From a virus (lineage: Duplodnaviria; Heunggongvirae; Uroviricota; Caudoviricetes), in IMG/VR virus record IMGVR_UViG_2563366830_000002: a DNA stretch of 8,111 bases. One strand, 5' to 3'. Under the pieces are notes generated by a model, which made no database searches, was not told where the DNA came from, and worked only from the letters and a program-made list of their open reading frames with translations. Shown here one piece after another: positions 1-8,111 of the stretch; the first letter of the stretch is position 1, and each line of letters begins with the position of its first letter. The position numbers and the translations under genes were made by a program.

Positions 1-60
1 CCGGCAGAAGCAGAAAAAGCTTATTATGCTTCCATCGGAAACGATGATCTGGCAGCCTGA
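1..60 (+). CDS. IS3-family transposase OrfB, C-terminal fragment (5' part outside window)
   Basis: Frame 1 reads ...PAEAEKAYYASIGNDDLAA then TGA at 58..60, just inside the terminal inverted repeat. The P-x-E-x-E / YY pattern resembles IS3-family OrfB C-termini as I recall them. Confidence 0.45.
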   Translation, partial: PAEAEKAYYASIGNDDLAA

Positions 61-102
61 GTTCACAGATAAAACACTCTCCAGGAAACCCGGGGCGGTT
101 CA
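1..102 (+). mobile_element. IS3-family insertion sequence (IS629-like), right end only; the element body lies left of the window
   Basis: Reverse complement of 78..102 reads TGAACCGCCCCGGGTTTCCTGGAGA, matching 23/25 the terminal repeat at 8017..8041 (TGAACCGCCCCGGGAATCCTGGAGA), i.e. an IRR/IRL pair. Protein-like sequence of the flanking phage gene stops exactly at 102/103. IS629-type assignment is from memory. Confidence 0.7.
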
Positions 103-457
103 GGTCTGTGTAGATCAACTTTCCTGTTCCGTCGGTGTCTGCACCAACTTCGTACTGAACGCGCATTGCTGCTGTTGGATTGCGTACACCAGGAAGCATA
201 ATTTCAGTAATGCGCAGACAATCGGACGGGTACTGGTATGCGTATTCCCAGTCTGGCGGCGGATTGCTCGTATCTGCAAGCGCCACGCGTTTGGTAGCAA
301 AGTTCCAGTCAAAATCAGAAAGCACAGCATCACGGCAGGCCTCAAAGTGCAGCGAACATTCCCCCGCTTCCTTGCTGGCTTCCGTCAGGCTGTTAATACT
401 GCGGCTGTTGCCAATATTGGACAGCGCACGATTGCAGATCTCTACTACAGAGGCCAT
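103..457 (-). pseudogene. Virion head-to-tail adaptor-like gene (T7 gp11 / P22 gp4-like N-terminus), 3'-truncated by the IS at 102
   Basis: ATG at 457..455 with GGAG 11 nt upstream. 118 protein-like codons (MASVVEICNRALSNIGNSRSINSL...GKLIYTD) end exactly at the IS junction; the frame then reads through the IS repeat without a stop, which is why the ORF track omits it. Adaptor assignment rests on recalled N-terminal pattern and position after the capsid genes. Confidence 0.5.
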
Positions 458-479
458 AAGTTTCTATACTCCTGCAATA

Positions 480-497
480 AAGGGGCCGAAGCCCCTT
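480..497 (-). other. Intergenic GC hairpin (AAGGGGC-nnnn-GCCCCTT) between the 111-aa ORF and the adaptor-like gene
   Basis: 7-bp stem with 4-nt loop seen directly. On the minus strand it is followed by only a weak T-run (TATT), so it is more likely a partial terminator or RNA-stability element than a strong terminator. Confidence 0.3.
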
Positions 498-513
498 GTC
501 TGATTCGCGAGGC

Positions 514-849
514 TTACACGCCCAGTTCTTTACGCTTATCTGCGATCTTCTCGCGGAGCGTTTCTGCTTTGGCGTTATGGTGTGGCTTCTCGTTAAAGAG
601 CAATTCGTACTCTTCACGGAGCTTATCCAGTTCACCATCATCTGACACATCGTTGATGATTTTGGTGCTGGTTGCTGCCATTGACACCTTTCCCGCTACC
701 TTTGCTTTTGCCTGTCTGGCTGCATCGTTAACAGGTTCCAGTGCGCTACCAGGCTCACCTTCGTATTCGATTTCTGCCCCCTCCGGCCACAGAGTGTTAT
801 GGATATGAGAGAGGCGCAGAACGCGGTATCTTGGTTTCTCACCTGACAT
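514..849 (-). CDS. Hypothetical small virion-module protein (111 aa from ATG 849; track start is GTG 858)
   Basis: ORF track 514..858. ATG at 849 is preceded by AAGGTGA with 5-nt spacing. Charged, Lys/Glu-rich, protein-like composition; co-oriented and tightly packed with neighbouring structural genes. Confidence 0.6.
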   Translation of the reverse strand: MSGEKPRYRVLRLSHIHNTLWPEGAEIEYEGEPGSALEPVNDAARQAKAKVAGKVSMAATSTKIINDVSDDGELDKLREEYELLFNEKPHHNAKAETLREKIADKRKELGV

Positions 850-859
850 CAATATCACC

Positions 860-5913: not shown

Positions 5914-5924
5914 AAGGTGAGATC

Positions 5925-6344
5925 ATGAAGACAATTGATATGTTGGCTAAGTATCTAAATGAATGGCCATTAAAATATTCTCGTATCGTTCAGGCTGAAG
6001 ACTGCATTTTTTATGGCGTTTTTGCTGGTAATGAAATGCATTACGAAGTAATTCAGAGTGAGGGACTGGCCGGGTTAACTCTTAGCGAAGACCATGGTAC
6101 TAGCGTTACGTTCCATGACTGGATAACAGCACAACGTTCTGAAATGGAAAAAGGCGATGTTTTTGATATTTCTCGCGCTGTTTACGCTAAAGCAAAAAGT
6201 GATAATGATTACATGAGCGAACACTTATACAACATGAAGTTACAATGCCTGCATGCGGCGCTTATTCAGAATGGGCACTTCGATAAAACAAGTGCCATCA
6301 ATATTGCGGAAGCCATCAACGCTGGATTTAATGCCATTAAGTAA
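5925..6344 (+). CDS. Hypothetical protein (139 aa), low-GC accessory (moron) gene of unknown function
   Basis: ORF track. SD AGGTG 5 nt upstream of ATG; own terminator downstream. First 60 nt contain 18 G+C (30%) by my count versus 28/60 (47%) in a sampled capsid-gene stretch (1501..1560). Orientation is opposite to all structural genes. No recognisable motif, no obvious signal peptide or TM segment. Confidence 0.7.
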   Translation: MKTIDMLAKYLNEWPLKYSRIVQAEDCIFYGVFAGNEMHYEVIQSEGLAGLTLSEDHGTSVTFHDWITAQRSEMEKGDVFDISRAVYAKAKSDNDYMSEHLYNMKLQCLHAALIQNGHFDKTSAINIAEAINAGFNAIK

Positions 6345-6364
6345 CACCGTGACATGTCACAAAC

Positions 6365-6391
6365 AGCCAGCCGATGAGCTGGCTTTGTTTT
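6365..6391. terminator. Bidirectional intrinsic terminator between the convergent ORF139 and terL
   Basis: Stem AGCCAGC / GCTGGCT with 6-nt loop, flanked by AAAC upstream and TTGTTTT downstream on the plus strand; on the minus strand it is followed by GTTTGTG. Confidence 0.6.
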
Positions 6392-6434
6392 ATCCTCATC
6401 AGAGGATATCAACGACATTATCCCCACCAGCGGA

Positions 6435-7910
6435 TTAAGCATATGGATCGTAATCTGTGATGGCCTTGCCTTGCTGGTTCTGCTGCCCGGGAATTCGCAG
6501 ACGCTTCGACACAGGGAACGCAAACGTCAGCAGTAGCGCATCGCCTTTACCAGGAGAACGCCCAAGCCGCTCCTTGATATCTTCCTTCGGTTCGATAACG
6601 ATTTTACCGTCCACTCGAACTTTGTACTCTGCCGCAGACAGGTCGTCCGCTGTTTCCTGGTCATCCAGCATGCCGCCCAGCCTCAGCCATGTCTTGCATG
6701 AGTTGAACATCTCCCCACGCTTGTTGAGCATCTGCGGGTCAGTAGACGCGCCACCGAACGGAACAAGTTGCCATGTACGACCCCAGCCATCACCGATTGA
6801 CTTCAGACCAGTTCCGTAACCGAAGTCGATGAACACTGCGTCAGCCTGGTACTGGTCTTCAAAGTCAGCGATACGCTTCGCCATAATCAGATCGTCAGTG
6901 GTCTTGTTGCCAGTCCACAGCACCTTACTGTGCAGCCCCTGCCGCAGGTATATCACAGCGTCATCAACGCCGGAGTATGCCGGGTCAACGCCGATTATCA
7001 CCGGAGCATGTGCAACCTGCGCAGCGGTTACCACCCGTTTCATTGCCTCGTCAGTAAGGCCGGTAGGGATAAACTGCAATTCAGATGCATCCGGGAATAT
7101 GCCGCGCACACGGATTTTAACGAAGTCGCTGTCTTCCCCGTAGTCATCAACCCATTTCTGCAACTGCTGTTTGTTAGTGCCTTCCACCGTCCGGCTGTCA
7201 ATCTGCGCAGTTTTCCAGCGGTGTTTATATTTGCGGAAACATTCGCGAAAACGCCCGGTGTTACGTGTAGGGTTTCCGAACGCCACCCAGATAATCTCAG
7301 TGTCTTCGTCCGTAAGCGCACCCTCAGCAACTTCCCACACCAGATCCGCAATGTTCGACGCTTCATCGAATACCACGATGATGCGTTTGCGCTCGTTGTG
7401 TAGTCCGGCGAATGCCTCAGTGTTGTGCTCAGACCAGGGTATTGCGTCAGCCCGCCACCGCTTGTCGTGCCCAGGGTCATTGCTGTACATCGCGGTAGCG
7501 GTACAGGTAAACCAGTCTTTCGTGATAGCAAGGTTCGACCACTTGATAATTTCCGGCCAGGTCTTCGTTCGTAGCTGGTTGTCGGTGTTGGCGGTCACCA
7601 CGACCTTACAATCCTCGCAAGTGGACATGCCCCAGTTGATCAGCATTGAGATGAATGCGGATTTACCAATACCGTGACCAGAAGCGCGTGCCAACATAAG
7701 CGGCTGATAGCGCGTCTCTGGATTCTGCAGGTGATCACGTATCTCTCGGAACGCATCAGCCTGCCACTGACGTGGGCCGGTAGCATGTGCCAGTTCAGTC
7801 CCCTCTTCCCCCCACGGGAACGCATAGAGGGCATAGCCAAGCGGATCGTGAGTGAACCCTGCAATATCCTCGATTAACTGCTCTTCAGGAGATAACGCTG
7901 TATCTGTCAC
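6435..7910 (-). CDS. terL: Terminase large subunit (491 aa), GTG start
   Basis: ORF track. N-terminal P-loop-like motif (...ARASGHGIGKSAF...) followed by an acidic ...IIVVFDEASNI... segment (Walker B-like) and a C-terminal nuclease-sized domain; typical size. Start codon is GTG at 7910..7908 with an in-frame TAA immediately upstream; AGGA ~10 nt upstream. Confidence 0.9.
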   Translation of the reverse strand: MTDTALSPEEQLIEDIAGFTHDPLGYALYAFPWGEEGTELAHATGPRQWQADAFREIRDHLQNPETRYQPLMLARASGHGIGKSAFISMLINWGMSTCEDCKVVVTANTDNQLRTKTWPEIIKWSNLAITKDWFTCTATAMYSNDPGHDKRWRADAIPWSEHNTEAFAGLHNERKRIIVVFDEASNIADLVWEVAEGALTDEDTEIIWVAFGNPTRNTGRFRECFRKYKHRWKTAQIDSRTVEGTNKQQLQKWVDDYGEDSDFVKIRVRGIFPDASELQFIPTGLTDEAMKRVVTAAQVAHAPVIIGVDPAYSGVDDAVIYLRQGLHSKVLWTGNKTTDDLIMAKRIADFEDQYQADAVFIDFGYGTGLKSIGDGWGRTWQLVPFGGASTDPQMLNKRGEMFNSCKTWLRLGGMLDDQETADDLSAAEYKVRVDGKIVIEPKEDIKERLGRSPGKGDALLLTFAFPVSKRLRIPGQQNQQGKAITDYDPYA

Positions 7911-8016
7911 TGATTACCATCCTGACGTTCTTTGAGTCGCTTCCTGGCTGCTGCTATGCGATCAGCAATTGTCACATTCACATTAACATCCAGGCGTTCT
8001 TTGAATGCGTTGACGT
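7907..8016 (-). pseudogene. C-terminal 35 codons of an upstream gene (probably terminase small subunit), 5'-truncated by the IS at 8017
   Basis: Minus-strand frame reads ...VNAFKERLDVNVNVTIADRIAAARKRLKERQDGNQ then TGA overlapping the terL GTG (GTGA overlap, 7907..7910). The frame runs straight into the IS inverted repeat. terS assignment is by position only. Confidence 0.45.
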
Positions 8017-8111
8017 TGAACCGCCCCGGGAATCCTGGAGACTAAACTTCCTGAGAAAGAGGTAAACAGGATGACTAAAAATACTCGTTTTTCCCCCGAA
8101 GTCCGTCAACG
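8017..8111 (+). mobile_element. IS3-family insertion sequence (IS629-like), left end; the element continues right of the window
   Basis: Terminal repeat TGAACCGCCCCGGGAATCCTGGAGA at 8017..8041, then AGAGG RBS and ATG at 8071 opening MTKNTRFSPEVRQR, which I recognise from memory as the N-terminus of IS629/IS1203-type OrfA. Confidence 0.8.
8071..8111 (+). CDS. IS3-family transposase OrfA, N-terminal fragment (continues beyond window)
   Basis: ATG at 8071 preceded by AGAGG; translation MTKNTRFSPEVRQR... runs off the window end. Confidence 0.8.
   Translation, partial: MTKNTRFSPEVRQ

Follow-up and report, generated by a model that had tools for sequence, protein, structure and literature searches.

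Genes and features of the segment

The window, by which the whole analysed stretch of 8,111 nucleotides is meant, carries the head and neck module, from terL to gp11, of a prophage of the phiV10/epsilon15 kind (Uetakevirus-type), with the end of an insertion element at either edge. From the left, its minus strand carries the 5′ part (103–457; 118 codons and 1 nt) of a gp11-like tail adaptor or tail tubular gene, which corresponds to phiV10 p14 according to the phiV10 annotation, is the homologue of epsilon15 gp11 and matches PHROG 394, "tail protein" (E = 2e-48). It is followed by genes for a putative virion-module protein of 111 amino acids similar to epsilon15 gp9 (514–849; PHROG 590, WP_000012377.1 in relatives), a capsid cement protein of the Bbp16 family (860–1297; Pfam PF21190, E = 1e-48), and the major capsid protein of the epsilon15 GP7 family (1349–2335; Pfam PF20911, E = 7e-148, and annotated as such in relatives). 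Further along the same strand lie genes for an epsilon15 gp6-like protein annotated as scaffold or "protease" (2350–3027; PHROG 458, E = 4e-109), a Bbp19-like protein (3030–3326; Pfam PF25181), the portal protein (3323–5002; Pfam PF12236, E = 3e-187) and an epsilon15 gp3-like protein of 68 amino acids (5017–5223; PHROG 831). The large terminase subunit gene, terL (6435–7910, minus strand), matches PHROG 2, "terminase large subunit" (E = 1e-52), and is annotated as terminase in relatives; it adjoins a 3′ remnant of terS (7907–8016, minus strand), which comprises the last 35 codons, the stop codon and 2 nt of a split codon of a gene that matches PHROG 51 at full length. Neither terL nor the adaptor fragment nor the 139-aa ORF described below gave a Pfam match, and the identity of terL and the adaptor was resolved by the PHROGs.

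Between terL and the portal gene an island is found with two features on the plus strand, a tRNA-Arg with the anticodon UCU (5651–5727), behind which stands a hairpin terminator (5771–5806), and a moron-like ORF for a protein of 139 amino acids (5925–6344; PHROG 4846, E = 2e-89) with a terminator at 6365–6384. Scanned permissively with Rfam, the island returned the tRNA and otherwise sub-threshold noise; a DicF-like match on a terminator hairpin was dismissed as part of this noise, as it scored 16.9 bits versus a threshold of 48 bits. No sigma-70 consensus promoter was found in the island.

The window is 96–97% identical at the nucleotide level to phiV10, TL-2011b and the O157 typing phages 9 and 10, the value for phiV10 being 96.8% across 95% of the segment. 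Pfam matches for GP7, Bbp16, Bbp19 and Head-tail_con together with gene-by-gene synteny identify the morphogenesis module as one of the phiV10/epsilon15 type.

IS629 ends at both edges

IS629 is a member of the IS3 family with a copy-out/paste-in mode of transposition, has a length of 1310 bp and contains orfA and orfB, which are joined by a programmed −1 frameshift. Positions 1–102 (plus strand) are the right end of one copy, here called IS#2, with the last 60 nt of orfB, its stop codon TGA at 58–60 and the right inverted repeat (IRR) at 78–102. Positions 8017–8111 (plus strand) are the left end of another, IS#1, with the left inverted repeat (IRL) at 8017–8041 and the orfA start codon ATG at 8071. 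Of the transposase genes, the window holds only 41 nt from the start of orfA and 60 nt from the end of orfB, the remainder of both copies falling into assembly gaps. The two arms of 25 nt are complementary at 23 positions (92%), and the 14-mer TGAACCGCCCCGGG occurs exactly twice, at 89–102 on the minus strand and at 8017–8030 on the plus strand, with a chance expectation of 0.01; both window ends thus carry the imperfect terminal repeat of about 25 bp, starting with this 14-mer, which characterizes IS629. Compared to the annotated IS629 mobile element in LC567824.1, the left stub is identical at 102 of 102 positions and the right stub at 94 of 95; the orfA ATG corresponds to position 55 of that element and its translation reads MTKNTRFSPEVRQ. 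Both ends read from IRL to IRR on the plus strand and the two elements are therefore in direct orientation, in agreement with a preliminary description which had placed IS629-like ends, both repeats and the orfA start at these positions. The copies IS#1 and IS#2 have both end SNPs in common and are therefore sibling copies.

Source contig and insertion sites

The reverse complement of the window exactly equals positions 2347–10457 of the source locus (L005), where it is flanked by N-runs of 1135 and 1215. It constitutes one entire contig of 8111 bp from the draft genome of E. coli KTE130, with N-gaps on both sides in scaffold KE137258.1. Because this contig breaks about 100 nt inside each IS629 copy, an IRR stands at the left edge of the window and an IRL at the right; the short stubs are the trace of a whole contig that broke at a repeat. 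The 1.3-kb IS629 is repeated and was not resolved by the short-read assembler, which left its interior as N-gaps. The host is a non-O157 KTE clinical isolate, an E. coli of extraintestinal or commensal type.

The preliminary description had proposed an inspection beyond the window edges, where the absence of an insertion element would have spoken against it. In KE137258.1, whose order was derived from assembler read pairing and whose gap sizes are estimates, a gap of about 1.1–1.2 kb across either edge is followed by the matching opposite inverted repeat, and there the remaining part of the interrupted gene and a copy of the target-site duplication are found as well. Past IS#1 and IS#2 the genes follow in the order seen in prophages free of the IS. 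A third copy in the same orientation, IS#3, is located about 5 kb further along the scaffold, together with a deletion that removes 2.46 kb from the internal-virion genes.

The original sites of both insertions were recovered by comparison with relatives. The gp11-like gene encodes 201 amino acids in IS-free relatives, starts at 457 on the minus strand and is cut at 103. Its site reads cacaGACC-TGAACC...(gap)...GGTTCA-GACCagcc in L005 and cacaGACCagcc in the IS-free relatives, which defines the 4-bp duplication GGTC, with its right-hand copy at 103–106. The first ~189 codons of terS lie across IS#1, and the respective site reads gtcgACG-TGAACC...(gap)...GGTTCA-ACGtcaacg in L005 and gtcgACGtcaacg in strain MS 196-1, which has an intact terS; the duplication here is CGT, 3 bp, with its left-hand copy at 8014–8016. 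Duplications of 3 and 4 bp relative to the IS-free sequences are those of a simple insertion, the target duplications reported for IS629 being 3–4 bp in length (PMC3271280). The gene borders given previously, after codon 118 of the adaptor gene and before the last 35 codons of terS, were confirmed. Both genes are split and not deleted, their other halves being located directly past each IS.

The triplets next to the window ends, GGT at 103–105 and CGT at 8014–8016, are as initially described, and their difference had been read as a sign of two independent insertions or of a rearrangement. This comparison is uninformative because the triplets flank different IS copies; informative is the comparison of the two flanks of one and the same IS, where GGTC stands opposite GGTC and CGT opposite CGT. 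Independent insertion is thereby upheld, while rearrangement is contradicted by gene halves which follow in phage order across each IS. As each gap has a partner end, the missing gene part and a duplication of its own beyond it, the locus is explained by two simple insertions, independent of each other, into a prophage that is colinear apart from them. It is thus very probable that a phiV10-like prophage of KTE130 was hit by IS629 in two separate events with the same orientation, once in terS at CGT and once in the gp11-like gene at GGTC.

Alternative explanations

Both ends might derive from a single IS629, if the segment and one IS formed a circle, were amplified in tandem, or were joined in a chimeric contig. 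Taken by itself the window would fit this, since circular permutation of the segment plus one IS would likewise place an IRR at its left edge and an equally oriented IRL at its right, and BLAST linked both window ends to one IS in MS 196-1. The latter impression, however, was due to joined BLAST pieces, terS being intact in that strain, and the scaffold provides each copy with its own partner end, missing gene half and matching duplication, in outer flanks which differ from each other and extend the phage map. An origin from one element is therefore extremely improbable. Scarcely more credible is the view of the segment as a composite transposon with IS629 at its borders, or as a piece of prophage that was relocated or rearranged. 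Cargo between two IS copies is the formal layout of such a unit, and IS629-associated deletions do happen in this prophage lineage, but each IS has its own duplication, indicating separate insertions, and the outer flanks, GGTC and CGT, represent different sites within contiguous phage genes. Neither a single duplication around the whole unit nor a second locus was observed: among 5426 complete E. coli genomes no IS629-flanked copy of the segment was found elsewhere, none of the four IS629-phage junctions recurred, and all 499 records covering at least 80% of the window had it in phage context. Strain N25, which had appeared as a match to the full window, was discarded, since its IS lies in the Bbp16 gene and the coverage was an artefact of joined BLAST pieces.

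Somewhat less remote, and still unlikely, is that the content of the gaps is not a single intact IS629 apiece but, for example, a shortened copy, two IS in tandem or additional cargo. The interiors of IS#1 and IS#2 are Ns in the only assembly which contains these copies, and a full-length element with intact transposase genes is predicted for each from gap size only. Including the gaps, the IS spans are 1325 and 1412 bp, with 1913 bp for the third copy, versus 1310 bp for IS629; IS#2 is thus estimated about 100 bp too long. Against this, the sizes of scaffold gaps are estimates, the first two spans are compatible with the length of IS629, every copy is IS629 at both visible ends, and MS 196-1 has the complete 1310 bp in its copy at this locus. 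The adaptor junction occurs also in KTE132 and in a Logan contig; the latter continues into the IS for 160 nt or more, in line with the prediction, and encodes a full adaptor::IS fusion protein of 171 amino acids. The fusion protein predicted for KTE130 itself matches EOW44572.1, "partial [E. coli KTE130]", with 100% identity over 152 amino acids.

Comparison with strain MS 196-1

The closest relative of the KTE130 prophage is that of MS 196-1 (NZ_CP146681.1), in which window positions 106–8016 are found with no difference in 7911 nt and the far flank is identical too. It contains one IS629 as compared to three in KTE130, and lacks the stretch between IS#3 and the adaptor site of KTE130. With this intervening DNA any IS#2 is gone in MS 196-1, as is the triplet GGT. 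Its single IS at the adaptor locus has the full 1310 bp, contains both transposase frames and an annotated frameshift, and is 99.8% identical to annotated IS629. The IRL junction of this copy is identical to that of IS#3, and the SNP at its IRR end is of the IS#3 type, while its IRR junction lies 3 bp deeper in the adaptor gene, reading IRR-CTGTG compared to IRR-GGTCTGTG in KTE130. A simple homologous recombinant of IS#3 and IS#2, which the shared IRL junction might suggest, was rejected in view of the 3-bp offset and the IS#3-type SNP.

IS3-family transposases cut 3 nt outside a partner end, as in circle formation by IS911 and IS2. It may be speculated, with considerable doubt, that the gp11-like site is a targeted spot and that the offset is the footprint of end-targeted transposition, or of an intermediate between two IS629 copies processed by transposase or IEE, rather than of homologous recombination or coincidence. 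Targeting of inverted repeats, as in the target switch of IS911, is described at second hand in PMC9333248. The offset bears on how elements of the IS3 family make adjacent deletions in nature.

Probable consequences for the prophage

Insertion of IS629 into terS duplicated CGT, and insertion into the gp11-like adaptor gene GGTC, with inactivation of both genes as the expected outcome and the deletion at IS#3 probably adding damage. With terS and the adaptor gene disrupted and this deletion in place, the prophage should therefore be unable to package its DNA or to build a tail. The locus was previously called a defective prophage fragment; we infer that it is indeed defective, but it is no stand-alone fragment, as the gene halves adjoin each IS in phage order.

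Three direct repeats of 1.3 kb could serve as substrates for RecA-dependent deletion, and crossing-over between IS#1 and IS#2 would excise about 9.2 kb. The earlier suggestion that recombination between the IS copies might invert the segment does not hold, since homologous recombination between direct repeats allows deletion or duplication only. Deletion and mobilisation had been proposed as well; in the 5426 complete E. coli genomes neither the 9.2-kb deletion nor any other segment-loss derivative, inversion or mobilised copy of the segment was encountered.

The double insertion explains the end points of the contig and the truncated look of two phage genes. For annotation, it teaches that terS and the gp11-like gene were split by IS insertion rather than deleted. 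It is also a clean case of IS629 eroding a non-Stx prophage, which three hits of the element appear to have crippled.

Relation to known phages and IS629 insertions

Like the temperate podophages phiV10, TL-2011b and epsilon15, the prophage has the order terS, terL, island, portal, Bbp19, scaffold, major capsid protein (GP7), Bbp16, gp9 and gp11. In contrast to these phages, its lineage is without the epsilon15 gp10-like staple gene (PhiV10p13), has a different ORF and a tRNA-Arg in the island between terL and the portal gene, and is broken up by IS629. The double insertion is ordinary IS behaviour and already known in kind. The element, with ends 100% and 99% identical, is the same as that which interrupts stx2 (stx2::IS629) and is present in many copies in O157:H7 Sakai and EDL933. 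As in O157 prophages it generated duplications of 3–4 bp and is found in prophage DNA, its preferred target, prophages accounting for 62% of its sites in four genomes of O157 (PMC3271280), and gene disruption together with IS-associated deletion has been described in other cases (PMC7430833, PMC9397093). Compared to other IS629 insertions, the sites in terS and the gp11-like gene have been seen only in KTE130, KTE132 and one Logan contig, and unlike stx2::IS629 they concern a non-O157 host and a phiV10-like podophage instead of a lambdoid Stx phage.

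IS629 copies at the window ends

The inverted repeats at the two edges of the window belong to IS629. Direct reading and a repeat finder gave a pair of 25 nucleotides at 78–102 and 8017–8041, complementary at 23 of 25 positions, and the window contains just two copies of the terminal 14-mer TGAACCGCCCCGGG, one per strand, where chance would give 0.01. Compared with an annotated IS629 copy the window ends were identical at 102 of 102 and 94 of 95 positions, with the orfA ATG at 8071 falling on IS position 55. In the closest complete genome, the IS at the equivalent locus shows 99.8% identity to elements that Stx-phage records label 'insertion sequence: IS3 family IS629'. 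Both ends read from IRL to IRR on the plus strand, so that the elements have the same, direct orientation. One cuts the gp11-like tail adaptor gene (201 amino acids when intact), of which 118 codons and one nucleotide are kept in the window, the other the small terminase subunit gene terS (224 amino acids when intact), of which the last 35 codons and two nucleotides are kept. The preliminary description had reported IS629-like ends cutting a gene at each border; this observation is confirmed, its coordinates and codon counts are correct, and its interpretation mostly holds.

The reverse complement of the window is exactly positions 2347–10457 of scaffold KE137258.1 of E. coli KTE130 (assembly GCA_000408725.1; L005), where runs of 1135 and 1215 Ns flank it. 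It is thus a complete contig, broken at a repeat, which is why only about 100 nucleotides of IS are visible at each edge; breaking of contigs within IS copies is known assembly behaviour. The open reading frame predicted across the adaptor–IS junction has as top match a 'partial' protein of KTE130, 100% identical, and its 152 amino acids are the exact codon count from position 457 to the left window edge. Past the right-hand gap the scaffold resumes in the same IS at its IRR end and goes on into the 5' part of terS; past the left-hand gap come the IRL end, the remaining 3' portion of the adaptor gene and a full-length gp12-like gene of 823 amino acids. The segment had been taken for an isolated phage fragment, which it is not, the other gene halves lying across each IS in an outer gene order colinear on both sides with IS-free prophages.

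Target site duplications

End to end and including the gaps, the two IS span 1325 and 1412 bp, as compared to 1310 bp for IS629. With slashes marking the IS borders, the terS junctions in scaffold orientation read gtcgACG/TGAACC...(gap)...GGTTCA/ACGtcaacg, and the uninterrupted site in E. coli MS 196-1 (NZ_CP146681.1; L001) reads gtcgACGtcaacg, so that 3 bp are duplicated (CGT in window orientation). The adaptor junctions read cacaGACC/TGAACC...(gap)...GGTTCA/GACCagcc, and comparison with the uninterrupted sequence cacaGACCagcc gives a 4-bp duplication, GGTC. IS629 has been reported to duplicate 3-4 bp (PMC3271280). Each copy, with a duplication of its own, a span compatible with IS629 and colinear outer flanks, therefore went in independently as a simple insertion; terS and the adaptor gene are split, not lost. 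The two independent insertions proposed earlier are borne out, and the rearrangement offered as an alternative does not apply at these two sites, where the flanks are colinear. The comparison of GGT with CGT on which that choice had been based is uninformative, since these triplets flank different IS copies; the flanks of each single IS pair as GGTC/GGTC and CGT/CGT.

None of the four junctions was found in 5426 complete E. coli genomes, so the insertions are recent and private to the lineage. KTE132 shares the adaptor junction, as does a single Logan contig, which carries the full fusion of 171 amino acids. A C at position 75 in the adaptor copy is a T in the IS of MS 196-1 and in a third IS629 copy of the KTE130 prophage; a C at 8097 in the terS copy is a T in reference IS629 and in the IS of MS 196-1, the third copy being unreadable there. 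As the terS and adaptor copies share both distinguishing end SNPs they are probably siblings, which suggests that one was copied from the other or both from the same donor.

Predicted consequences for the prophage

These findings are textbook matter in their central parts: IS629, a phiV10-like phage, duplications and insertional inactivation of prophage genes are all already known. IS629 is highly active and favours prophage DNA in E. coli (PMC3271280; PMC7430833), and IS3-family transposition is described as copy-out/paste-in via a figure-of-eight and a circle (PMC3299598). With the terS C-terminus and the C-terminal 83 residues of the adaptor lost, and a third hit, the prophage would be incapable of making particles. 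The direct 1.3-kb repeats could recombine to delete or duplicate 9.2 kb, that is the segment and one IS; inversion, which had also been suggested, would not be expected because the repeats are direct. Formally the segment could also move as a composite transposon, though nothing supports this: a search for the junctions in the 5426 complete genomes showed neither the proposed deletion or mobilisation nor a derivative without the segment.

The third IS629 copy lies in the same prophage and orientation, about 5 kb past the left window edge (L005 16932–18844). It has no target site duplication, and 2459 bp of an SLT-domain gene and the next internal-virion gene are missing there as compared with the IS-free FDAARGOS_1300, an IS-associated deletion. 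Its estimated span is 1913 bp, about 600 bp above one IS629. In a related prophage of E. coli N25 an IS3-family element lies within the Bbp16 cement gene (L003 5059–6272), so this prophage family has been struck repeatedly by such IS at different sites.

MS 196-1 carries the same prophage, which shows no differences over window positions 106–8016 or over the far flank, and has an intact terS and a single IS629. The IRL junction of this IS is identical to that of the third KTE130 copy. Its IRR meets the 5' part of the adaptor gene at a point 3 bp deeper (GGTTCA/CTGTG versus GGTTCA/GGTCTGTG, read from window 100–110 against L001 7305–7320), and its IRR-end SNP is of the third copy's type, not the adaptor copy's. 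The deletion in MS 196-1 is therefore not a plain crossover between the adaptor copy and the third copy, which would have left the GGT and the adaptor copy's SNP in place. An independent IRR-adjacent deletion from the third copy may by chance have ended 3 bp from the adaptor insertion site, or the event may have been targeted beside an existing IS end; targeting of inverted repeats is known for IS30 and is said to resemble the 'targeted' transposition of IS911 (PMC9333248). It is also possible that recombination was followed by gene conversion and the loss of 3 bp, or that the MS 196-1 assembly has a local error.

Comparison with related phages

Gene identities were taken from the ORF listing, Pfam, PHROGs and the annotation of relatives. 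All structural genes between the repeats (103–8016) are on the minus strand: the terS 3' remnant (7907–8016), the large terminase subunit gene terL (6435–7910), a gene for 68 amino acids (5017–5223), the portal (3323–5002), a Bbp19-like gene (3030–3326), the scaffold/'protease' (2350–3027), the GP7-type major capsid protein (1349–2335), the Bbp16 cement protein (860–1297), a gene for 111 amino acids (514–849) and the adaptor 5' part (103–457). Across 95-100% of its length the segment shares 96-97% identity with the Escherichia phages phiV10, TL-2011b, O157 typing phages 9 and 10, HEMP4 and others, all of them temperate podophages that belong to the epsilon15/phiV10 type (Uetakevirus). Of the 5426 complete E. 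coli genomes, 498 have a place that covers 80% or more of the window.

A variable island (5224–6434) separates the 68 amino acids gene from terL. Its plus strand carries tRNA-Arg(UCU) at 5651–5727, an ORF of 139 amino acids at 5925–6344 (PHROG 4846) and three hairpin-plus-T-run terminators (5771–5806, 5891–5906 and 6365–6384); the approximately 430 nucleotides upstream of the tRNA (5224–5650) yielded neither a convincing ORF nor an Rfam match. In phiV10 this position is occupied by a different, Sf6 gene 66-like ORF. The window lineage and the IS-free AREA_486 lack a 'capsid staple' gene and keep the Bbp16 cement gene. Between the 111 amino acids gene and the adaptor gene the window has a spacer of only 56 nucleotides (458–513); in phiV10 (as PhiV10p13) and in many related prophages this site holds the 'capsid staple' gene, which is epsilon15 gp10-like and about 324 nucleotides long.
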